From Myxococcales bacterium (lineage in GTDB: Bacteria > Myxococcota_A > Polyangia > Palsa-1104 > JAEUJZ01), in NCBI GenBank assembly GCA_016794505.1, contig JAEUJZ010000076.1, positions 1 to 64,000 on the forward strand: 64,000 nt of DNA, read 5' to 3'. Under the pieces are notes generated by a model. The model had not been told where the DNA came from and ran no database searches. It saw only the letters and a list, made by a program, of their open reading frames with translations. The position numbers and the translations under genes were made by a program. This document shows, one piece after another, positions 1 to 9,747 of the stretch. Within the stretch, counting starts at the first letter, position 1. Each line of letters begins with the position of its first letter.

Positions 1-9
1 TACATCCAG

Positions 10-918
10 GTGATGTGCGATCACTTGCGATCGATTGTTCGCAGTCGCATGCGGACGATTGCCTTGTCGGCGCTGTGGCCGCAGGTCTCGCAGGTCGTGC
101 GCGATACCATCCTGGGGCCGCGCGGGACAGAGCCAGGCAGCGAAGGGCGCAAGGGTCGCTTCTTTGCCGAAAACGGCATGCTGGTGACCGAGGTCGAGAT
201 CTTGGAAGCCGAGATCCAAGACAGCGTCATCGCCGAGCTGATGAAGAACGTGCAGCGCGAGTCGGTGATGCTGGCCATCGGCGATCGTCAGGCACAGGAA
301 AAAGTGACCTCGGCGAAGCTGCGGTCCGAGCTGGAAAAGCAGCAGACGGAGCTGCAGATGACGGGCAAGCAGCGCGAAGCCCAGCTCGGCGAGCTGGTGC
401 GCAAGCTCAAGCACGAAGCCGAGCTGTCGAATCTGCGCGAGCGCGAGCTGGTGCAGGGCGAACAGGCGCGCTTGACCGGCGAGCGCGAGCTTCTTGAGAT
501 CCGCAGCAAGCTCGAACGCGAAGCCCTCGCGCAAAAAGCGCAGCTCGATGCACTGACCCGCGAAGCCAGCACCAAGGCCGGCGCGCAAGCCACGCTGCAC
601 AGCGAAGAGATCGATCACTTGAGCCGCGTGCGTGCGCTTGAGATTCAGTTGCTCGATGCACAGGCCCGCGCCGTCGTGGCCGAGCGGACATCGGTGCAGC
701 CACAGCTGGTCGAAGCGCTCACTGCGCTCGGCGACAAGGCCCTGCTCTCAGAGGTCGCGCACAACATGAACTTGGTCTCGCTGTTCCGCGGCAAAGAAGC
801 AGGCGAGATCCTCAAGGACATCGTGGGCGGCACGCGCTTCGCTCCTGCCCTCGCCGAAGCGCTGAGCAGCAAGTCATCGCCGATCAAGTCCGAGCCCCCT
901 GCGCCGATGAAGAAATAG
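10..918 (+). CDS. Coiled-coil protein, SPFH/flotillin-like (or vault-like) C-terminal region. It is probably 5'-truncated by the window edge.
   Basis: Long E/A/Q/R/L-rich heptad region, then a ...LVSLFRGKEAGEILKDIVGG... tail similar to flotillin/YqiK C-termini. The ORF begins with GTG at position 10 and could continue upstream of the window. Confidence 0.35.
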   Translation: MMCDHLRSIVRSRMRTIALSALWPQVSQVVRDTILGPRGTEPGSEGRKGRFFAENGMLVTEVEILEAEIQDSVIAELMKNVQRESVMLAIGDRQAQEKVTSAKLRSELEKQQTELQMTGKQREAQLGELVRKLKHEAELSNLRERELVQGEQARLTGERELLEIRSKLEREALAQKAQLDALTREASTKAGAQATLHSEEIDHLSRVRALEIQLLDAQARAVVAERTSVQPQLVEALTALGDKALLSEVAHNMNLVSLFRGKEAGEILKDIVGGTRFAPALAEALSSKSSPIKSEPPAPMKK

Positions 919-923
919 CGCGC

Positions 924-1784
924 TTACTTCCCCTGCACAGACGCAGCGCTCTGCTCAACGAAGATCGAGTCACTGGTGACTCGATCAGAAGAGGCCGCAG
1001 CGCGCAGCTGGTCATACACCGAGCGAAAGCGCGGGCAGTCCTTGGCCACTCGGCCTGGATGGATGCGCTTCAGCATCGCGGCGCCGTCGATCCGCTTGCT
1101 GTAGGCGAGGCGTGCTCCATCGCTTCGCTGCGTCACACGATCCAGAAACGGCGGCCGGCACGCGCATCCAGTCGGATCGACAAATGACTGCTGGATGCGA
1201 GCGCTGAGCTTGTGCGCGCAGCTTCCCGCTTTCAGACCACCGCCAAATTGCTCGACCTCTTGCCATGTATGCGGGGGCAGAACACACGCGGCGATGTGCT
1301 GCCGCAGGGATGGCGCGACCTGTCGATATTGCATGGCAAAGCCGTTGTCCCAGTCGGCAAGCAGCCACGCTTCGATCTCTGGCCAGGCCAGCAGAGCATA
1401 GAATTCCAGATCCGGTTTCCCGGCTGCATCGCGCACGCGCTGTGCTAGCTCGTTCGCCCAGGTCACCTGCTCTGCAGACGGATCGTTGGCGTCGGCAAAA
1501 CGGCAATCGGCATCGTCGATGAGCAGCACAAAATCCACGTTGCAGGCTGCGCCGTGAACGTGTTCTCTGAGCTGCGCCAGCATCGCATCGATCAGGCGCC
1601 GACCCGTGGCGCCGGCATGACGCTCGTGTGGTTCTGCATGCGGGCGTCCAATCTTTGGCGCGGGCTTGCTGACCGCGGGAAAACAGCGCTGCCACTCGAC
1701 ATCCGGCGCGATCTTTTGCAGGAAGGCATGCATTCCGCCCGTCTCGGTATAGCCAGCCGTGCAGAAGTAGCCGCCCCTTACCAC
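924..1784 (-). CDS. TOPRIM-like small protein resembling DUF4276 (AbiLii-like). It is the partner of the upstream AAA ATPase.
   Basis: Read 5'->3', the sequence begins GTG GTA AGG GGC GGC TAC TTC, matching the track protein MVRGGYF, and the stop TAA is the reverse complement of TTA at 924-926. The gene is therefore on the minus strand, although the track labels it '+'. The protein has a DxD-type motif (FVLLIDDADC) and a conserved EAW motif (EIEAWLLAD). The start GTG (1784-1782) overlaps the ATPase stop (1780-1778) by 7 nt, suggesting an operon with translational coupling. Confidence 0.55.
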   Translation of the reverse strand: MVRGGYFCTAGYTETGGMHAFLQKIAPDVEWQRCFPAVSKPAPKIGRPHAEPHERHAGATGRRLIDAMLAQLREHVHGAACNVDFVLLIDDADCRFADANDPSAEQVTWANELAQRVRDAAGKPDLEFYALLAWPEIEAWLLADWDNGFAMQYRQVAPSLRQHIAACVLPPHTWQEVEQFGGGLKAGSCAHKLSARIQQSFVDPTGCACRPPFLDRVTQRSDGARLAYSKRIDGAAMLKRIHPGRVAKDCPRFRSVYDQLRAAASSDRVTSDSIFVEQSAASVQGK

Positions 1785-3148
1785 GGCCAGCCTCCAAGCT
1801 GTGGTACGCCGCCGCGGTATACGTCGCCTAGCTCCCAGCCGTCGCGAAAGAAGCTCTCTAGCTCGGCCGGATCGACGCGTCGCATCGCCTTTTCACCCAG
1901 GCCAAAGACAAACAGCGCCACATCCCCGCTCTTGAAGCCATCGGTGAAGGTGTCGAGCAAGTCCGGCGAGTGCGTGCTGACGAAGAGCTGCTCGGCCGAT
2001 GTGAAGCGCTGCAGCCAGCCACCCACCACCTTGAGCCAGGCTGGATGCAGGTTCAGCTCGGGCTCATCGATCGACAGCACCGAGCCCTTCTCGGGCGAGA
2101 ACAATAGCAGCGCCAACCACAGCGCCTTGAGCGTTCCATCGGACATCTCGCGCGGCTTGTACTTCTGGCCGCCGATGTGCAGCTCAAGCTGTTTGTATAC
2201 GTCGCTGGCATCGATGATCTTGATGCGCTTCAGATCGGGGATTAGCTCCCTGAGCCGCTGCGGATATTCCTCGCTGAGGAAGTCATGCTGCTGGTCCAGG
2301 TGGCGCAGGACGTTCACGAACTCTGCGCCTTCCGCATCGAGCGTCCGCACGCCCAAATCGATCTTCGCCCCGTCGACCAGCTTGCGCAGGTTCAGGTCCG
2401 TGCTGCTGTAATTGCGGAAGCCGCGCGCGAAGCCGATCAGCTCTTCCGAGATGCGGTCGAAGTCGGGAAAGATCTTCTCGTAGAAGGCTTTGTCTTTCAG
2501 AAGCGCTTTCGTCTGATGCAGCACCGTGTCATTGGCTTCGACGGCGAGCTCGGCCTTGGTCATGGGAACCGCAGCCTGGCCCGGCGCATTGGACCGCGCC
2601 GTCTTTACGAACGTAGCTCTTCTGCTCCCTGCGCCATCGCTATTGCAGCTCACGCTGAACGTCGGTTGCTCACTGGGTGCCCCTGGAGCCCACCAGTCTC
2701 GGGGAGAAAAGCGAGCGAGCGCTTCGTTGCGAATGTAATACCCGCTTGGGAAGGAGTCTGGCTCACCGACAGTACAACTGAGCGCGTACAGGATATCCGA
2801 GGGAGGATGCGGCTCCGCGAAGAGGTCCCTGGTATCCGGGGAAGGTTGGCTGTCGAAGATCCACTGGAGATAGAAATCCGCATCGGACTTCGGGCGACCT
2901 TTGACTTTCTTCGCCCGCTCGGTGCGGTTCAGCACATCCGCTCGCCCGTGCGCCTCGATGGCATTCAGAAAATGCGTCGGCCCACCTTCGGTCAGAAGCA
3001 TGTCGGGCAAAAAGCCCATGGCTTTGATGAAGTTGCTCTTGCCCGAGTTGTTGGGACCGACGAGCAGATTGATCCGGCCAAGCTTTGGAAGCGTATTCCT
3101 CTCCACGTGAAGGTTCCGGTAGTGGACCGGCAAGAACGAGCGAAGCAT
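1778..3148 (-). CDS. AAA_21/ABC-type ATPase of the OLD/PARIS AriA/AbiLi class (predicted abortive-infection ATPase).
   Basis: Direct translation from the ATG at 3148 gives MLRSFLPVHYRNLHVERNTLPKLGRINLLVGPNNSGKSNFIKAMGF, a Walker A motif. Further on are VLSIDEPELNLHPAWLKVV (Walker B/D-loop) and FVSTHSPDLL (H-loop). The track ORF extends to 3271, but the upstream 41 codons are Arg/Gly-rich and likely non-coding. Confidence 0.8.
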   Translation of the reverse strand: MLRSFLPVHYRNLHVERNTLPKLGRINLLVGPNNSGKSNFIKAMGFLPDMLLTEGGPTHFLNAIEAHGRADVLNRTERAKKVKGRPKSDADFYLQWIFDSQPSPDTRDLFAEPHPPSDILYALSCTVGEPDSFPSGYYIRNEALARFSPRDWWAPGAPSEQPTFSVSCNSDGAGSRRATFVKTARSNAPGQAAVPMTKAELAVEANDTVLHQTKALLKDKAFYEKIFPDFDRISEELIGFARGFRNYSSTDLNLRKLVDGAKIDLGVRTLDAEGAEFVNVLRHLDQQHDFLSEEYPQRLRELIPDLKRIKIIDASDVYKQLELHIGGQKYKPREMSDGTLKALWLALLLFSPEKGSVLSIDEPELNLHPAWLKVVGGWLQRFTSAEQLFVSTHSPDLLDTFTDGFKSGDVALFVFGLGEKAMRRVDPAELESFFRDGWELGDVYRGGVPQLGGWPW

Positions 3149-3370
3149 GCCGTACCCTATCACGCGTCCCGACTGGATCAGCCCCCGCAAGCGCGGGGCT
3201 GCACCGCCGTTCATACCGCCGCGGCGCGGTCTTGCCCTGACCCCCAGGTTGCCCGGTCGAGCGGCTTCCATCGTCCGAGGAATTGCGGCATGGTGCCCTC
3301 GCTTGCTTGCCGTGGCTGGATCGCCTGCGTGTACGGGGTGAACGCCACACGCTCAACGCCTGGAGAAGCC
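3149..3370. promoter_or_regulatory. Divergent intergenic region between the ATPase operon (minus) and the GH31 gene (plus).
   Basis: About 220 bp without a credible ORF, flanked by divergently oriented start codons. Confidence 0.3.
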
Positions 3371-5923
3371 ATGTCTGCTGTCTGTGTCTCGGTTCGCACG
3401 CGCGTCGGCACCACCTTTCACCGACGCCTGGGGTTCTGGCTGGTGGCATCGCTTGGCTGGCTGCACTGCCAGCCGCAGCCGGGCCCCAAGGTCACGCTGG
3501 CTCAGGGCGACACGTCGCTGATCTTTGATCCAGCGGATCTCAGCCTGCGTCTGGTTCGCGGTGAAAAGCCGCTGCTGGTCTTTCCGCGCGACGCTCTTGC
3601 GCTTGGCGTGGTGGATCAAGTCAAGGGCTCGCTGAACTACGACCCGTGGCCGCTTGTCGGCGAAGAAGGCGCCTTCCCGGCGTCCACCCCCGATGGCCTG
3701 TCGTGGGAATCGCCGACCGCTGCGACGGTGGACGAGGCCACAGAAAAGAGCCTGCGCCTGCACCTCACATTCCCCCGCGGAACGGCGCAGCTTGCCATCG
3801 ATCAGACCGACAGCGGGCGCTATCGGCTGCAGCTTGTGCCAAAAGCCGAGGCCGCCCGCGTGGCCTACGTTCGCTTGATGCCGCAGATCGATGCGCAGGA
3901 AGGACTGTACGGCCTGGGCGCCGTCGAAGATCAGGTCAACCACCGCGGCAAGCGACGCGCCATGCAGATCGAGCTAATGGCCGAGGTCGAGAGCGGATAC
4001 AACGACATGCACGTGCCGATTCCGTTCGCCATCGGCACCACCGGCTGGGGACTTTTTGTCGAGAGTCGCCATCCCGCCGCCTGGGACATGGCCGCGACGC
4101 AGCCCGACCGCATCGCGGCACTGGTGGGCACCGGCCCCGACTCGCCAAAGGGGCTCTTGTTTCACCTGTTTTCAGCGGCGCACCCGCTGGATGTGACGAA
4201 GAAGTACTACGACGTCACCGGCACACCCGGACTGCCCGCCCGCTTTGCCTTGGGGCCGTGGCTGTGGCGCGACGATCACGTGACGCAGGCGCAGATCCTC
4301 GCGGACTGTAACTCCATGCGCGATCTCGATCTGGCGGACAACGGCATCTGGGCCGATCGGCCGTACTCGACGGGAATCAGCACCTTTGATTACGACAAAA
4401 AGACGTTCCCCGATCCCGATGCGATGCTGCGCACTGTGCGCGATCTGGGCTTTGCCTTTGCGCTGTGGCACTCGCCGTACATGGACGACAGCGACCCAGC
4501 GACGGCGATGCTGGCGCAAGAAGCCACGCAGGGCGGCTTTTATCCACCACAGGCGGGGATCCTGTTTACCAAGTGGGGACAGCCGATCGACTTCAGCAAT
4601 CCGGCGGCGGCGGCCTGGTGGCAGCGCAACCTGCGGCGCTATTCCGACGCAGGCGTCGTCGGCTACAAGCTCGACTATGGCGAAGACGTGCAGATCGGCC
4701 TGCCCGGTGGACGCAACGTCTGGAAGTTCTTCGACGGCAGCGACGAGCGCACCGGGCAAGCGACGTACAAGCTGGGCTATCACCGCGCGTTCGCCGAGAC
4801 GCTACCCAAAGACGGCGGCTTCCTTCTGTGTCGCGTCGGCACCTATGGCGGCCAACGATACGGCTGCGTGATCTGGCCCGGCGACATGGACGCCAACATG
4901 GCGCGCTATGGCGAGCGGCGAAAAGATCGCGGCGGCAAGGAATACGTCGCCATCGGCGGCCTGCCAGCGACGGTAATCTATGGATTATCACTGGGTCCTT
5001 CGGGGTATCCGTTTTACGGCGCCGATACCGGCGGCTATCGCCACTCGCCCCCCGATAAAGAGACGTTTGTGCGCTGGTTCGAACAGACGTCGCTGTCGTC
5101 GGTGATGCAGGTCGGCACCAGCAGCGACAACGTCCCGTGGGAGACGCCGCCCGATACCGATTTCGATGCGGAAGTGTTGGCGCTGTACCGGATCTATGCG
5201 CGCTTGCACCTGCGCCTGTGGCCGTACGAGTGGACCTTGGCGACGCGCATCGCGACGGATGGCCGCCCGATCCAGCGCCCGCTGGGCTTGGCCTATCCCG
5301 AGCTTGGCCAGCACCCCGACGATGTGTACCTGTTTGGCGACGATCTTTTGGTGGCGCCTGTCGTCGATCACGGCGCCCGAAAGAAGCGCGTCATTTTTCC
5401 GCCGGGTCGCTGGATCGACTGGTGGCAAGGCACGAGCCTGAACGGACCGCAGACCGTGACCGTCGCCGCGCCGCTGGGTGTGCTGCCGCTATACATCCGC
5501 GAAGGCGCCATCGTGCCGCTTCTGCGCCCGACCATCGATACGCTGCTGCCAACGACGCAGCCCGCTCGCGTTGACTCGTACGCGACGACGCCCGGCCTGC
5601 TGTATCCGCGCGTGGTGCCAGGGCCGGCCTCGCAGTTCGTGCTGTTCGACGAAAGCGTGCTCGCGCAAGAAGACAGCGAACGACAGCTTGTTCTGCGCAG
5701 CACATCGGGGCGCGAGTTTACGTCCGGCGCGCTGTTTGAAGTGCTGGCCTGGGGAGCGCGTTCGCCAAGCGCCGTGCAGCGGGCCGGTGCTCTCATGGCC
5801 GAGCAGCCGTCGCTGAGCGAGCTCGAAAAGGCCGAGTCAGGCTGGCTGTATGACGCAGCGCGCGGTGGCACGCTGTACATCAAAGTACCCCGTGGCGATC
5901 AGCGCGTCGTGGTGCAGAAATGA
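3371..5923 (+). CDS. Glycoside hydrolase family 31 (alpha-glucosidase/alpha-xylosidase-like), secreted.
   Basis: ATG at 3371 followed by a signal-like N-terminus. The protein has the GH31 motifs WGLFVES, GIWADRPYSTGISTFDYD, GVVGYKLDYGED and VIWPGDMDAN. The track ORF 2285-5923 extends upstream antisense to the ATPase, and that part was rejected. Confidence 0.85.
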   Translation: MSAVCVSVRTRVGTTFHRRLGFWLVASLGWLHCQPQPGPKVTLAQGDTSLIFDPADLSLRLVRGEKPLLVFPRDALALGVVDQVKGSLNYDPWPLVGEEGAFPASTPDGLSWESPTAATVDEATEKSLRLHLTFPRGTAQLAIDQTDSGRYRLQLVPKAEAARVAYVRLMPQIDAQEGLYGLGAVEDQVNHRGKRRAMQIELMAEVESGYNDMHVPIPFAIGTTGWGLFVESRHPAAWDMAATQPDRIAALVGTGPDSPKGLLFHLFSAAHPLDVTKKYYDVTGTPGLPARFALGPWLWRDDHVTQAQILADCNSMRDLDLADNGIWADRPYSTGISTFDYDKKTFPDPDAMLRTVRDLGFAFALWHSPYMDDSDPATAMLAQEATQGGFYPPQAGILFTKWGQPIDFSNPAAAAWWQRNLRRYSDAGVVGYKLDYGEDVQIGLPGGRNVWKFFDGSDERTGQATYKLGYHRAFAETLPKDGGFLLCRVGTYGGQRYGCVIWPGDMDANMARYGERRKDRGGKEYVAIGGLPATVIYGLSLGPSGYPFYGADTGGYRHSPPDKETFVRWFEQTSLSSVMQVGTSSDNVPWETPPDTDFDAEVLALYRIYARLHLRLWPYEWTLATRIATDGRPIQRPLGLAYPELGQHPDDVYLFGDDLLVAPVVDHGARKKRVIFPPGRWIDWWQGTSLNGPQTVTVAAPLGVLPLYIREGAIVPLLRPTIDTLLPTTQPARVDSYATTPGLLYPRVVPGPASQFVLFDESVLAQEDSERQLVLRSTSGREFTSGALFEVLAWGARSPSAVQRAGALMAEQPSLSELEKAESGWLYDAARGGTLYIKVPRGDQRVVVQK

Positions 5924-8239: not shown

Positions 8240-9747
8240 CGTTCGGCTCCGGTCAATAACACGGCTACGTCTTCTCCGTCGGAAATTTCAGATGAAAACG
8301 CGTCTTCTTGCATTCGGGTCAATAAGCCAGCCAGGCCCGCAGAGCCGGTTGCACACACGCGAAGGAAGCCGGCCTGCTTTGCCGCAGTGTGCGCCTGGGC
8401 CAGCGCTGCTTCCGATGCCAACACCGGATAGCCGCCAGAAGACAGCATGCCTTGCAGCGCACAGGCCCAGTCGTACGTCTCGTCATCCAAGATGCCGCGC
8501 GCCAGGCTGTGCGGTTCACCGACCATCGTCCACGGCCACATGAATGCGTGCCGATGCTGCCGCGCGAAGTGCAGCGCCTGCCGCACGGCGGACTGCTGCG
8601 CGGGCTGCGTCAGGATCTCGGCCCAGCGCGGAAAGAGCGACGGCGCGATCGCTGGATACTCGGTGGCCGGCAGCGCCTTGCTGATCTCGGCCAGGATCCG
8701 CTGATACGCGCGAACAAGCGGCGCCACAGCCGATGTCTGCACGGCATACACACGCGGCAGCGTCGACAACAGGCCACTCTGTACCGCTTCGGCAAGCGCT
8801 GCCACCACCGCGCTGAGCAGCGCTCCGCCGCCCACCTGCACGAACAGGTGTCGCAGCCGCTGACGACGCGGCCCCAGCGCATCGAGCAGCTCATACACAA
8901 TCGTGTGAGCCCCTTGAATCGTCAGTCCGTTTTCAGGTCCCTGGCAGCAAAACGGCAGCGCGCCGGCTGCCACCGCCGCCTGAAACGCGCGGTATGTCGG
9001 ATCCCCCGCAGCCGAGTGCCGCGCTGGATCACGATGCGGGGCCGCGCGCGTGCAGATCGTGACGTCGGCCCCCAGCGCTCGCAGGTGCGCCTGCGTCGAG
9101 GCCTCGGCGGTGGGCGGAATAAAGACCAGCAAGCGCCGCCCGCAGGCTCGCGCCAGGACCGCTGCGGCCCGTGCTGCGTTGCCACAGCTTGCGATGGCCA
9201 GGGGTCGGCCCCGATCTGCGCGCTCGGCCAGCACCGCGCTCAGCGTCTGGCCGGACGCCAGCGCTTCATCGACGAGGATCTCAAGCAGCAGGCCGAACAG
9301 GTGGCGGCCTTTGTGCGATCCGCTGACGTTTTCGCTTTCGTCTTTGCACCACAGCGTGCTGCCAGATGGGAGTCCAAGTTGCTTAGCCAGCGACGGAGAC
9401 GCCCGAAGCGGTGTCGAGCGAAAACCCGTGCCTGCGATGGCTGCGACCTGCGCATCGAGCGTCCGCACCAGCGCGATGAAGTCGGCATCGTCCACGCCCA
9501 TGGCGCGGGCGCGGTGATACGCAAACAAGCGCTGGCGAAAGCGCACAAACGGCAGCGGCTCGTCTGCGTCGCTGGCAGCGTGGGAATCGCCTGGCAGCGC
9601 AAGCGGCGTGTCAATGCGACGCTGCAGCAGGTGATCCGTGTCGTCGTGATCGTGCGACACACGGACGCGCGGACAGCGCCAAGGCTCAGCGGCCTGCCAC
9701 GGGTGGAGCGCGCCACAGCCGGCGCAGATCAAAGACGCGCCGATCAC
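8236..9747 (-). CDS. PLP-dependent fold-type II enzyme, threonine-synthase-like, with an N-terminal Cys-rich (zinc-ribbon-like) segment.
   Basis: PALP motif LWCKDESENVSGSHKGRH (cf. KxExxNPTGSFKDR). The likely start is the GTG at 9747, forming GTGA with the stop of the upstream gene at 9744-9746. The track gives a TTG start at 9828. Confidence 0.7.
   Translation of the reverse strand: MIGASLICAGCGALHPWQAAEPWRCPRVRVSHDHDDTDHLLQRRIDTPLALPGDSHAASDADEPLPFVRFRQRLFAYHRARAMGVDDADFIALVRTLDAQVAAIAGTGFRSTPLRASPSLAKQLGLPSGSTLWCKDESENVSGSHKGRHLFGLLLEILVDEALASGQTLSAVLAERADRGRPLAIASCGNAARAAAVLARACGRRLLVFIPPTAEASTQAHLRALGADVTICTRAAPHRDPARHSAAGDPTYRAFQAAVAAGALPFCCQGPENGLTIQGAHTIVYELLDALGPRRQRLRHLFVQVGGGALLSAVVAALAEAVQSGLLSTLPRVYAVQTSAVAPLVRAYQRILAEISKALPATEYPAIAPSLFPRWAEILTQPAQQSAVRQALHFARQHRHAFMWPWTMVGEPHSLARGILDDETYDWACALQGMLSSGGYPVLASEAALAQAHTAAKQAGFLRVCATGSAGLAGLLTRMQEDAFSSEISDGEDVAVLLTGAER

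Follow-up and report, generated by a model that had tools for sequence, protein, structure and literature searches.

A mobile two-gene cassette coding for an ABC-type ATPase and a DUF4276 protein in a Myxococcales bacterium, related to the candidate system HEC-01

The 64,000-nucleotide stretch of DNA that was analysed (hereafter the window) includes a real, tightly coupled two-gene cassette coding for an ABC-type ATPase (gene A) followed by a DUF4276 protein that is a putative nuclease of the Toprim family (gene B). The pair is horizontally mobile, moving as one unit among unrelated genomic contexts. Of the catalogued systems, it is closest to the PADLOC candidate HEC-01, which consists of an AAA_21 ATPase and a DUF4276 protein, and the locus is an ordinary addition to this known candidate class. 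We consider it probable that the locus is a mobile OLD-like module that combines the ABC ATPase with a Toprim-type effector, with HEC-01 as the nearest described system. A role in defence is one that we infer by analogy with related systems.

The gene pair and its products

Both genes are located on the minus strand. Gene A (1778..3148) codes for a 456-amino acid ABC-type ATPase of the AAA_21/AAA_15 kind that begins MLRSFLPVHYRNL, and it is enclosed by a longer ORF, found in the ORF listing and by reading the minus strand, that spans 1778..3271. The ATG at 3148 was taken as the start codon, since this methionine is the first residue in all 26 aligned homologues. The 497-amino acid version that starts at 3271, which is the choice of automatic gene callers, was rejected since the extension is absent from every homologue. 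Gene B (924..1784) codes for a 286-amino acid protein; on the minus strand it opens with GTG GTA AGG GGC GGC TAC TTC, translated as MVRGGYF, and it ends with a TAA stop codon at 926-924. The two genes overlap by 7 nucleotides (1778..1784), with the TAA stop codon of A at 1780-1778 and the GTG start codon of B at 1784-1782, inside the conserved junction TGGCCGTGGTAA. The location and strand of A, the length and GTG start of B, the 7-nucleotide overlap and the common direction of the two genes had all been proposed in a preliminary description of this DNA, and reading the sequence confirmed them. A spurious 285-amino acid antisense ORF is present on the plus strand at 1554..2411, and it may explain the "+" label of B in the ORF track that accompanied that description.

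A Shine-Dalgarno-like GGAGG (1791..1795, minus strand) is found 6 nucleotides upstream of the GTG of B, within the Gly-Gly codons of the LGGWPW tail of A, and G-rich counterparts are present at the A/B junctions of other loci. The junction, which consists of WPW, the stop codon and an overlapping GTG or ATG, is kept in 12 loci from three phyla, and an overlap was found in every homologue examined, in support of the translational coupling that had been suggested for the pair. The two genes are not chance ORFs because their products match Pfam AAA_21 (E 4.7e-28) and DUF4276 (E 2.9e-11), respectively, and because dN/dS, calculated against a 92%-identical locus from a Myxococcales MAG (L009), is approximately 0.29 for A and 0.16 for B. 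Purifying selection acts on both.

A gene coding for an MVP_shoulder/SPFH-like protein (plus strand, ending at 918) converges on the pair, its stop codon separated by 5 bp from that of B, and a GH31 gene (3371-5923, plus strand) diverges from it; these are the flanks that the preliminary description had named. The promoter of the pair presumably lies in the intergenic stretch 3149..3370, which separates gene A from the divergent GH31 gene; it is presumed only, since a promoter scan gave no match to the sigma-70 consensus. Terminator-like signals were at background level.

The AAA_21 identification of A made at the outset is supported by Pfam matches above the gathering thresholds to AAA_21 (99.6 bits, threshold 27) and AAA_15 (E 2.1e-14, 54.4 bits, threshold 32.1); a match to SMC_N was also obtained (E 1.6e-8). 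The motifs quoted at that time for both proteins are all present. On the minus strand, they include in A the Walker A motif or P-loop LLVGPNNSGKSN (3032..3067, residues 28-39), in which G31, P32, N33, G36 and K37 are invariant, the Walker B motif with the residues that follow it, VLSIDEPELNLHP (2042..2080, residues 357-369), in which D361, E362, P363, E364, H368 and P369 are invariant, and the H-loop STHSP (1964..1978, residues 391-395), with H393 and S394 invariant. Across 36 ATPase sequences GPNNSGKS, the signature-like MSDGT, IDEPE and THS are invariant, as is the C-terminal tail GWELGD(L/V)YRxGxPxLGGWPW in the homologue alignment. The AF2 model of A (pLDDT 89.9) has the ABC head fold, and its best neighbours in a Foldseek search of the PDB were PtuA and the SMC and Rad50 heads (E 4.5e-13 and weaker). 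Residues ~91-205 of the model form a variable beta-rich insert, which is the least conserved region of the protein (majority fraction 0.32 vs 0.72 for the catalytic core). The nucleotide-binding motifs of this ABC-fold ATPase are intact, and its beta-rich insert is poorly conserved. The insert has a parallel in AriA, where the pore residues proposed to recognise the trigger are poorly conserved (PMC11464382).

Protein B was correctly assigned to DUF4276 in the preliminary description: its match to the Pfam model (PF14103) scores 44.4 bits vs a gathering score of 30.2 and covers positions 33-191 of the 192-position profile, leaving the first 32 unmatched, and all 31 aligned relatives of B match the model as well. 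NCBIfam has no model for B. DUF4276 has been described as a member of the Toprim group and as the homologue of Mad4 (PMC12065111). Direct sequence searches of the B clade against Toprim families gave nothing beyond one weak match to RloB, so the link to Toprim was made through a sister clade of canonical DUF4276/OLD-like_TOPRIM proteins, to which the B clade aligns in hhalign with 94.8% probability (E 5e-8); the OLD-like_TOPRIM model is also matched by 10 of 27 members of this sister clade. In the AF2 model of B (pLDDT 88.7) a Toprim-like alpha/beta core with four strands is followed by a helical C-terminal domain, the core elements being b1 (residues 3-8), a1 (12-25), b2 (30-35), a2 (61-74), b3 (85-91), a3 (102-121) and b4 (127-133). 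At 50% identity, the 1.84 billion representatives searched include ~350 clusters of the B clade.

Active site of the DUF4276 protein

Residue conservation in B was counted in a clade alignment of 200 sequences, in which the counts vary by column (183-200). The segment A10-G11-Y12-T13-E14 (1743..1757, minus strand) holds the position of the canonical Toprim glutamate, occupied by A10, and an invariant acid four residues further on, E14. Position 10 is G in 91 sequences, A in 59, C in 14, S in 10, D in 3 and E in none; E14 is found in 183 of 183. A joint MAFFT alignment places A10 opposite the invariant glutamate (E10) of the VEG motif of the sister clade. The canonical glutamate at the end of beta1 ("vEG") is absent clade-wide, and of the Toprim hallmarks the B clade has the glycine after beta2 and the DxD after beta3: G58 and G61 are near-invariant and align with the GGK of the sister clade, and the DxD is made up of D91 and D93 within D90-D91-A92-D93 (1506..1517, minus strand), a part of LLIDDAD. 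The TOPRIM-like site of the preliminary description thus stands as to its DxD and falls short in the glutamate. D90 is an extra clade-invariant aspartate that turns the motif into DDxD. Each of D90, D91 and D93 is kept in 200 of 200 sequences; D91 and D93 align with D62 and D64 of the sister-clade DLD motif and D90 with a leucine.

Directly after beta4, E136-I-E138-A-W140 (1365..1379, minus strand) forms a putative second-metal site at the start of EIEAWLLAD (residues 136-144). E136 is conserved in 200 of 200 sequences, E138 in 198 of 199 and W140 in 198 of 198, and E138 aligns with the glutamate of the IEAW motif of canonical DUF4276. K192 and K230, in the helical domain, are invariant. Across ~200 B sequences seven charged residues are therefore invariant (E14, D90, D91, D93, E136, K192 and K230) and an eighth, E138, differs in a single sequence, a pattern from which we argue that the active site is live.

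The two-metal site of OLD, which includes E400, E404, the DxD, T506/E508 and K562 (PMC6755086), was used as the template for that of B. E14 would be the counterpart of E404, and D91/D93, E136/E138 and a lysine of the helical domain would complete the site. Unlike in OLD, the equivalent of E400 is Gly or Ala in the B clade. The mutation E400A alone had no discernible effect on in vitro cleavage by Bp OLD (PMC6755086), and thus a Toprim nuclease can work without this glutamate. The carboxylate missing from the canonical position may be supplied by D90, with which the neighbouring strand beta3 ends, by E14 or by both. A further-reaching proposal is that the clade is a functionally distinct Toprim nuclease whose catalytic carboxylate has been relocated, the beta1 glutamate being replaced by Gly/Ala and D90 being gained on beta3. 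We put this forward tentatively, as possible rather than likely. The DDxD is accompanied by other clade-specific residues, namely C94-R95, CxxK192 and YSK230, and the partner ATPase has the clade-specific invariant LGGWPW tail. If the carboxylate has indeed been relocated, metal geometry, chemistry or substrate could differ from those of OLD and AriB, and the clade could represent an ABC-ATPase/Toprim immune system of a type of its own that so far escapes detection, beyond another HEC-01.

Distribution and genomic context

Members of the clade are found in Myxococcota, Alphaproteobacteria and Bacillales. Copies of the pair at 92-100% identity are syntenic with the window locus, and those at 54-72% identity are located in unrelated neighbourhoods, several of them with integrases, an excisionase, an S24 repressor or a WYL regulator close by. 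This distribution agrees with the accessory status that had been suspected for the pair. At three loci (L002, L015 and L018) the pair lies inside an integrase-bearing element, and at L015 it is adjoined by a gene of the UPF0175 antitoxin family. At the window locus and two others (L004 and L019) it is chromosomal, with no mobile-element genes nearby. One scan of a genome collection found only the syntenic 92% copy and one 54% copy. Metagenome contigs scanned with the GH31 neighbour as an empty-site test gave only relatives at 44-50% identity, too distant to inform. The pair had no match in IMG/VR (pattern scan), INPHARED (tblastn) or PLSDB (tblastn), which were searched for carriage by phages and plasmids.

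The neighbours of the pair in the window code for the GH31 protein, an M20 peptidase, a CN hydrolase, PALP enzymes and the MVP_shoulder protein. No other defence gene, integrase or tRNA is visible in the window, there is no helicase in the neighbourhood, and a search for flanking direct or inverted repeats gave no convincing insertion scars. Across ~12 loci no conserved third gene, whether for a methyltransferase, a ParB-like protein or another product, is present beside the pair.

Relationship to known systems and possible function

Pairs of an ABC ATPase and a DUF4276/Toprim protein have been described before as HEC-01, as Mad3-Mad4 of MADS and in the NsnC variants of Menshen, and systems of the ABC ATPase and Toprim type have been discussed as a defence family with an OLD-like grouping (PMC11464382; bioRxiv 10.1101/2024.01.29.577857). 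HEC-01, or "Hma-embedded candidate 01", consists of the ABC ATPase HEC-01A and the Toprim-like HEC-01B; the single representative assayed in E. coli gave no protection from any of the phages used (bioRxiv 10.1101/2024.01.29.577857). The best match of A among the PADLOC models was HEC-01A (1.3e-30). Protein B matched the HEC-01B models of PADLOC v2.0.0 weakly and partially (2e-4 over 37 residues, with 8e-8 as the best value in the clade), and these were the only effector models matched by the B clade. PADLOC would probably not call the pair because of these weak and partial matches. Both HEC-01 and the present pair consist of two adjacent genes, an AAA_21/AAA_15 ABC ATPase gene followed by that of a small Toprim-like partner, and the beta-sheet-type Insert 1 of HEC-01A resembles the beta-rich insert in the model of A (bioRxiv 10.1101/2024.01.29.577857). 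On the other hand, HEC-01B has been reported to have the OLD metal-binding site (bioRxiv 10.1101/2024.01.29.577857), whereas the B clade is without the canonical glutamate, and no Hma system surrounds the present pair.

The preliminary description had placed the pair in an OLD/PARIS/AbiL class. The class placement holds, in view of the literature and of HEC-01A/B as the best PADLOC matches; membership in PARIS or AbiL does not. PARIS was rejected since B has no match to DUF4435 or AriB (E up to 1, Pfam and PADLOC) and neither do 31 relatives (E up to 10). AriB is a DUF4435 protein that has and needs the canonical glutamate E26, and the B clade has neither; a further difference from PARIS is that no phage or satellite carriage was found for the present pair. 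The model behind the strongest PADLOC match of A under the name AriA (9e-29) has 304 positions, as many as Pfam AAA_21. AbiL resembles the pair in having an ATPase and a small partner encoded by two genes, and it is grouped with the ABC ATPase and Toprim systems (PMC11464382). Its AbiLi model matches A (4.9e-20), but no AbiLii model matches B or its relatives; AbiL membership was rejected, and the earlier equation of DUF4276 with AbiLii-like proteins was not borne out. [quoted passage not shown] There, however, a single polypeptide carries both, and class 2 systems have an adjacent UvrD-like helicase. Class 1 OLD and Gabija (class 2) were rejected for the present pair because its two proteins are encoded separately, by genes whose stop and start codons overlap, and no helicase is nearby; the match of A to the Old model is confined to the C-lobe of the ATPase.

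In MADS, Mad3 is an AAA_15/21 ATPase and Mad4 a DUF4276 protein, and MADS is counted among the ABC ATPase and Toprim systems (PMC12065111, PMC11464382). MAD3 is the best NCBIfam match of A (1.6e-19), and the PADLOC mad3 model is matched as well (1.2e-15). Membership was rejected because the MAD3 score, 70.4 bits, is far below the equivalog cut-off of 420 and because the neighbourhood includes neither a methyltransferase gene nor other mad genes; unlike Mad3-Mad4, the present pair stands alone in all loci examined. Menshen resembles the pair in its NsnB-type ABC ATPase, the PADLOC model of which matches A (5.8e-17), and DUF4276 occurs as the C-terminal effector domain of NsnC in Menshen variants (PMC12065111). 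It was rejected since B is a stand-alone protein and no NsnA or NsnC-N (ParB-like) components are present. Septu and the PtuAB of retron I-A were rejected in spite of PtuA being the best structural neighbour of A, as the partner is a DUF4276 protein and not the HNH protein PtuB, and the NCBIfam PtuA score is 27.6 bits vs a cut-off of 500.

With PARIS, OLD and Gabija as models, the two proteins would be produced jointly and assemble into a complex, the ATPase keeping the B nuclease in an inactive state. A phage or mobile-element cue could be sensed by the variable insert of A, upon which ATP binding or hydrolysis would license or release B. The released protein would then cleave nucleic acid, either DNA or tRNA, by metal-dependent catalysis and stop the infected cell or the invader. 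Counted against a defence module are the failure of the tested HEC-01 representative to protect E. coli, the location of the pair among metabolic genes in the window, with no other defence gene in sight, the weak HEC-01B matches of B and the absence of the canonical Toprim glutamate.

Several other explanations were considered. The pair could be an addiction or stabilisation module of mobile elements, similar to a toxin-antitoxin system, in which B is a toxic nuclease checked by A and loss of the element kills the cell. Its presence inside integrase-bearing elements, next to an antitoxin-family gene in one of them, the tight coupling of the two genes and the Pfam label of AAA_21, which mentions a type IV toxin-antitoxin system, are in line with such a role, but three pairs, that of the window included, are chromosomal and free of nearby mobile-element genes. 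Moreover, HEC-01 was chosen as a defence candidate and not as a toxin-antitoxin module (bioRxiv 10.1101/2024.01.29.577857), and a defensive role is ascribed to the related PARIS, OLD, Gabija and MADS (bioRxiv 10.1101/2024.01.29.577857; PMC11464382). We regard this explanation as unlikely; toxin-antitoxin and abortive-infection roles are nevertheless compatible with each other. A housekeeping function in DNA repair or maintenance, like that of RecF (an ABC/SMC-like ATPase) with RecR (Toprim) or of an SbcCD-type ATPase-nuclease, appears quite improbable. The head of A resembles those of SMC, Rad50 and RecF, as the SMC_N match and the Foldseek neighbours indicate, and the genes around the pair in the window are ordinary metabolic ones. 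Against these stand the sporadic distribution across phyla in unrelated contexts, the linkage to integrases, the mere ~350 clusters of the B clade, the RecF NCBIfam score of 15.5 bits vs a cut-off of 172 and the lack of a coiled coil in A.

The matches of A to mad3, NsnB and MAD3, together with the occurrence of DUF4276 as the Mad4 family and as the NsnC C-terminal domain (PMC12065111), could also mean that the pair is an orphaned, non-autonomous fragment of a larger system, such as MADS, Menshen or a type I restriction-modification system with RloA/RloB-like partners. We think this very improbable, given the distance of the MAD3 score from its cut-off, the ~12 loci without a conserved third gene and the purifying selection on both genes. 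It is highly unlikely, finally, that B, having lost its general-base glutamate, is a catalytically dead Toprim scaffold acting as an adaptor or sensor, with toxicity residing in the ATPase or in another effector. None of ~183 clade members has the canonical glutamate, non-catalytic Toprim folds such as the CWB2 modules exist (PMC6755086), and the AriB E26A mutant, altered at this very residue, is inactive. The invariance of seven charged residues and near-invariance of E138 would however be unexpected in a dead site, and the Bp OLD E400A result points the same way.

[quoted passage not shown] The branch with DUF4276 partners is the least understood of them, being catalogued as HEC-01, for which the sole test was negative. 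The locus alone changes no concept, and its one unusual feature is the rewired active site of the putative nuclease B. It adds to the DUF4276 branch a well-defined clade that crosses phyla and has diagnostic motifs and a conserved translational coupling. The clade is useful for building better detection models, as a run of PADLOC v2.0.0 may well miss the pair, and the clade-wide loss of an "invariant" Toprim glutamate together with the gain of a neighbouring aspartate raises a testable question on the plasticity of the Toprim active site.

Gene structure and conservation of the A/B junction

The ORF listing shows two long minus-strand ORFs within nucleotides 924-3271 of the window. The reading frame of the upstream gene, gene A, is open from nucleotide 3271, but the Met encoded at 3148 (MLRSF...) is the start in all 26 aligned homologues, none of which has a counterpart of the 41-residue N-terminal extension. 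Gene A was therefore delimited as nucleotides 3148-1778, encoding a 456-amino acid protein, in agreement with the limits proposed in the preliminary description. Gene B (minus strand, nucleotides 1784-924) encodes a 286-amino acid protein; as previously described, it starts with a GTG at 1784, its 5' codons GTG GTA AGG GGC GGC TAC TTC specify MVRGGYF, and it ends with a TAA at 926-924. The TAA stop codon of gene A was read at 1780-1778, and thus the two coupled genes overlap by 7 nt, which confirms the overlap noted earlier. A GGAGG sequence is located 6 nt upstream of the GTG (1795-1791, minus strand), and all motifs quoted in the preliminary description were found at the expected positions. 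A spurious 285-amino acid antisense ORF inside gene A (1554-2411, plus strand), close to gene B in length, is a possible source of the "+" label attached to gene B. Another plus-strand ORF, of 1,212 amino acids (2285-5923), is an over-extended version of the GH31 gene, for which the start was called at 3371.

The junction is preserved in all 12 loci examined: after LGGWPW comes a stop codon overlapped by a GTG or ATG start, from which the gene B protein continues with (V)V(R/T/S/K)xGYFC.... These loci are drawn from Myxococcota-like metagenome contigs, an alphaproteobacterial MAG, Brevibacillus brevis and Paenibacillus amylolyticus. Conservation at the protein level persists where the codons differ, indicating that the tail does not merely reflect a ribosome binding site constraint. 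Automated gene calling fails systematically in this region. In the window's own lineage gene A is called 41 residues too long (497 amino acids; nucleotides 8514-10007 in L001, a locus with a homologous pair), and in three other such loci (L002, L015 and L016) gene B is called from an internal downstream ATG, with loss of strand β1 and the invariant TE motif. As a consequence, database entries of the clade are often wrong at the N-terminus.

The closest genome copy of the pair is found in an uncultured Myxococcales MAG (L009), where it is syntenic with the window and gene B is 92% identical. The dN/dS values with respect to this copy are about 0.29 for gene A, a value that a one-codon indel close to the N-terminus raises slightly, and about 0.16 for gene B; both genes are under purifying selection.

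Family assignment and features of the ATPase

Pfam searches identified gene A as AAA_21 (4.7e-28) and AAA_15 (2.1e-14), and gene B as DUF4276 (44.4 bits, gathering score 30.2), a family matched by all 31 aligned gene B relatives. The best PADLOC matches of gene A were the HEC-01A models (1.3e-30), with weaker matches to the AriA, AbiLi, NsnB, mad3, Old and PtuA models; the AriA model has 304 positions, the same length as Pfam AAA_21. Gene B matched only HEC-01B models, weakly (2e-4), and so did the rest of its clade (best 8e-8), with the sole exception of a HEC-01A-named model (1.4e-3). NCBIfam has no model for gene B. HEC-01, the nearest catalogued relative of the locus, is an ABC ATPase with a Toprim-like partner embedded in Hma systems; HEC-01B shares the OLD metal-binding site, and E. 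coli carrying HEC-01 was protected against none of the tested phages (Payne et al., bioRxiv 10.1101/2024.01.29.577857). In addition, DUF4276 has been assigned to the Toprim superfamily and has Mad4 of MADS among its homologues (Menshen analysis, PMC12065111). Since the literature contains both the HEC-01 pairs and the Toprim placement of DUF4276, the earlier proposal of an ABC ATPase plus Toprim-type module is correct at the level of class, and it is an idea already published as a candidate class.

Membership in several named systems was ruled out. The locus lacks the DUF4435/AriB component of PARIS, gene B has no AbiLii match as in AbiL, and there is no HNH partner as in Septu. Unlike OLD and Gabija, the domains are unfused and a helicase is absent. 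With respect to MADS, gene A reaches 70 bits against the NCBIfam MAD3 equivalog, far below its cut-off of 420, and the methyltransferase is absent.

An alignment of 36 gene A sequences showed invariance of the Walker A motif GPNxxGK, the signature-like S336-x-G338 (MSDGT), the Walker B and following motif (D361 E362 P363 E364 ... H368 P369 A370 W371) and the H-loop H393 S394. The C-terminal tail, with the consensus GWELGD(L/V)YRxGxPxLGGWPW, is strikingly invariant at W438, G441, D442, Y444, R445, G447, G452, W454 and P455, and W456 is found in at least 90% of the sequences. AF2 predicted the fold with confidence (pLDDT 89.9, pTM 0.90). In Foldseek the closest solved structures are PtuA, as found in the effector complexes of Septu and retron I-A, and the heads of SMC and Rad50 (E 4.5e-13 and weaker), with a TM of just about 0.4 because the match is confined to the head. 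Residues 91-205, approximately, are modeled as six β strands at the site of the coiled coil of SMC-type heads, which fits the sheet-extending Insert 1 of HEC-01A (Payne et al., bioRxiv 10.1101/2024.01.29.577857). Conservation is lowest in the insert and the helices before it (majority-residue fraction 0.32-0.36, about 20% gaps), compared to 0.72 for the catalytic C-lobe. By analogy with AriA, the insert is the best candidate for a specificity or sensor surface.

The atypical Toprim-like site of gene B

The AF2 model of gene B is also confident (pLDDT 88.7), with a core ordered β1(3-8)-α1(12-25)-β2(30-35)-α2(61-74)-β3(85-91)-α3(102-121)-β4(127-133) that leads into a helical C-terminal domain. 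The link of gene B to the Toprim families is indirect, through a DUF4276 sister clade seeded with a second DUF4276 gene met by chance in L007, another locus carrying the pair. Sister clade sequences (n = 27) matched DUF4276 (25/27), DUF3226 (17/27) and OLD-like_TOPRIM (PF20469, 10/27). Comparison of both clades by hhalign gave a probability of 94.8% and E of 5e-8 over window residues 59-147, aligning the Gly after β2, the DxD (D91/D93 to D62/D64) and the IEAW motif (E138 to E94 of the sister clade). In L007 (4665-6106, minus strand) the seed gene has the canonical VEG Toprim Glu and lies 1.7 kb from the pair; downstream is a gene for a 214-amino acid protein of no Pfam family, and an adjacent ATPase is absent.

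The active site was surveyed in a 200-sequence clade alignment of 90%-cluster hits and 50%-cluster representatives. E14 (183/183), D90, D91 and D93 (200/200 each), E136 (200/200), E138 (198/199), K192 (193/194) and K230 (193/195) are invariant or nearly so, as are W140, S194 and Y228. The position preceding the conserved G11 corresponds to the invariant Glu of the "vEG" motif in canonical Toprim proteins, but in this clade it holds Gly (91), Ala (59), Cys (14), Ser (10) or Asp (3), and never Glu. In a joint MAFFT alignment A10 of the window protein pairs with E10, which is invariant in the sister clade, E14 with the "+4" acid, and D90 with a Leu. The β1 Glu is the one feature of strict Toprim membership that gene B lacks among those examined.

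In the Bp OLD site, E400 serves metal A, E404 the metal-B waters, and T506/E508, directly following β4, metal B; the DxD is D455/D457 and the helical-domain Lys is K562. The single substitution E400A caused no discernible change in vitro (PMC6755086); the E26A mutant of AriB is inactive. By this template, the clade keeps E14 as the equivalent of E404, the DxD, and E136/E138 as those of T506/E508, with K192 or K230 as candidate catalytic lysines. It has lost the E400 equivalent and acquired D90 where the neighboring strand ends. Because the active-site residues are strictly conserved, the pattern argues for a site that is rewired but working rather than dead. This clade-wide Glu-to-Gly/Ala, DDxD variant, together with the invariant LGGWPW tail of the ATPase, is the only feature that we did not find described in the cited literature.

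Distribution, mobility and proposed mechanism

The pair is mobile: copies that are 92-100% identical are syntenic with the window, while pairs at 54-72% identity are found in unrelated neighborhoods. The L015 pair adjoins genes for a phage-type integrase, an HTH protein and a UPF0175 antitoxin-family protein. In L002 (GCA_964460115.1, contig CAYWPR010000069.1, 5438-21690) the pair is within a perfectly tandemly duplicated unit of about 8.1 kb, with 100% identity over the 7.3 kb compared, that includes genes for a phage-type integrase, a GGDEF protein, an Xre-like HTH protein and a 223-amino acid unknown protein; either an integrative element has truly been duplicated here, or the assembly is at fault. 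In B. brevis (L018, 1694-5469) the neighbors of the pair are an integrase gene, an HTH_17 gene resembling an excisionase and a gene for an S24 LexA-like repressor, surroundings that look like a prophage remnant or integrative element. In Paenibacillus (L019) a WYL-domain regulator (HTH_11 + WYL, 8571-9533) is located about 450 bp downstream of the pair. Two further loci, L006 (4826-6602) and L008 (2476-4198), include a second, different AAA_15/21 ATPase with a small downstream gene, 2-4 kb upstream of the pair, and Uma2-family endonuclease genes a few genes further upstream; the small partner in L008 has Toprim-like AED...HDLD...EEVGAW motifs. From this layout, OLD-like modules seem to occur in small clusters. 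Across the loci examined, the pair is not accompanied by any conserved third gene. The gene B clade comprises just 350 clusters at 50% identity (E up to 1e-3) among 1.84 billion representatives, and searches of IMG/VR, INPHARED and PLSDB gave no match to it.

In the window the flanks are metabolic or structural, with GH31, M20 peptidase, CN hydrolase and PALP enzymes on one side and a coiled-coil-rich MVP_shoulder gene (major vault protein shoulder, SPFH-related; 1-918, plus strand; domain 8.4e-8), which runs off the window start, on the other. The convergent stop codons of the latter and gene B are 5 bp apart (919-923), leaving no room for a terminator, and L001 and L009 have the same layout. 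Around the pair in the window, where the left context ends at the window start, no integrase, tRNA or flanking repeat was found. The G+C content of the pair (0.60-0.63) is slightly lower than that of the GH31/M20 region (0.64-0.68; window, 64%), a difference that is not striking.

We propose that A and B are translated together and assemble into a complex in which the ATPase would hold B inactive and sense an infection cue via its variable insert. ATP binding or hydrolysis would then license or release B, which may cleave DNA or RNA in a metal-dependent manner, aborting the infection or destroying the invader. The pair could instead be an addiction module of mobile elements, as the integrases beside some copies might lead one to think, a housekeeping RecF/RecR-like pair, or a remnant of MADS or Menshen left on its own, and gene B could be a dead Toprim scaffold that has lost its β1 Glu. 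The distribution and the conservation pattern fit all four less well than they fit the proposed mechanism. The locus would work like the OLD-like ABC ATPase plus Toprim systems. The observations and the class-level interpretation of the preliminary description are borne out, and the locus is a further member of a described candidate defence class that is itself still unvalidated.
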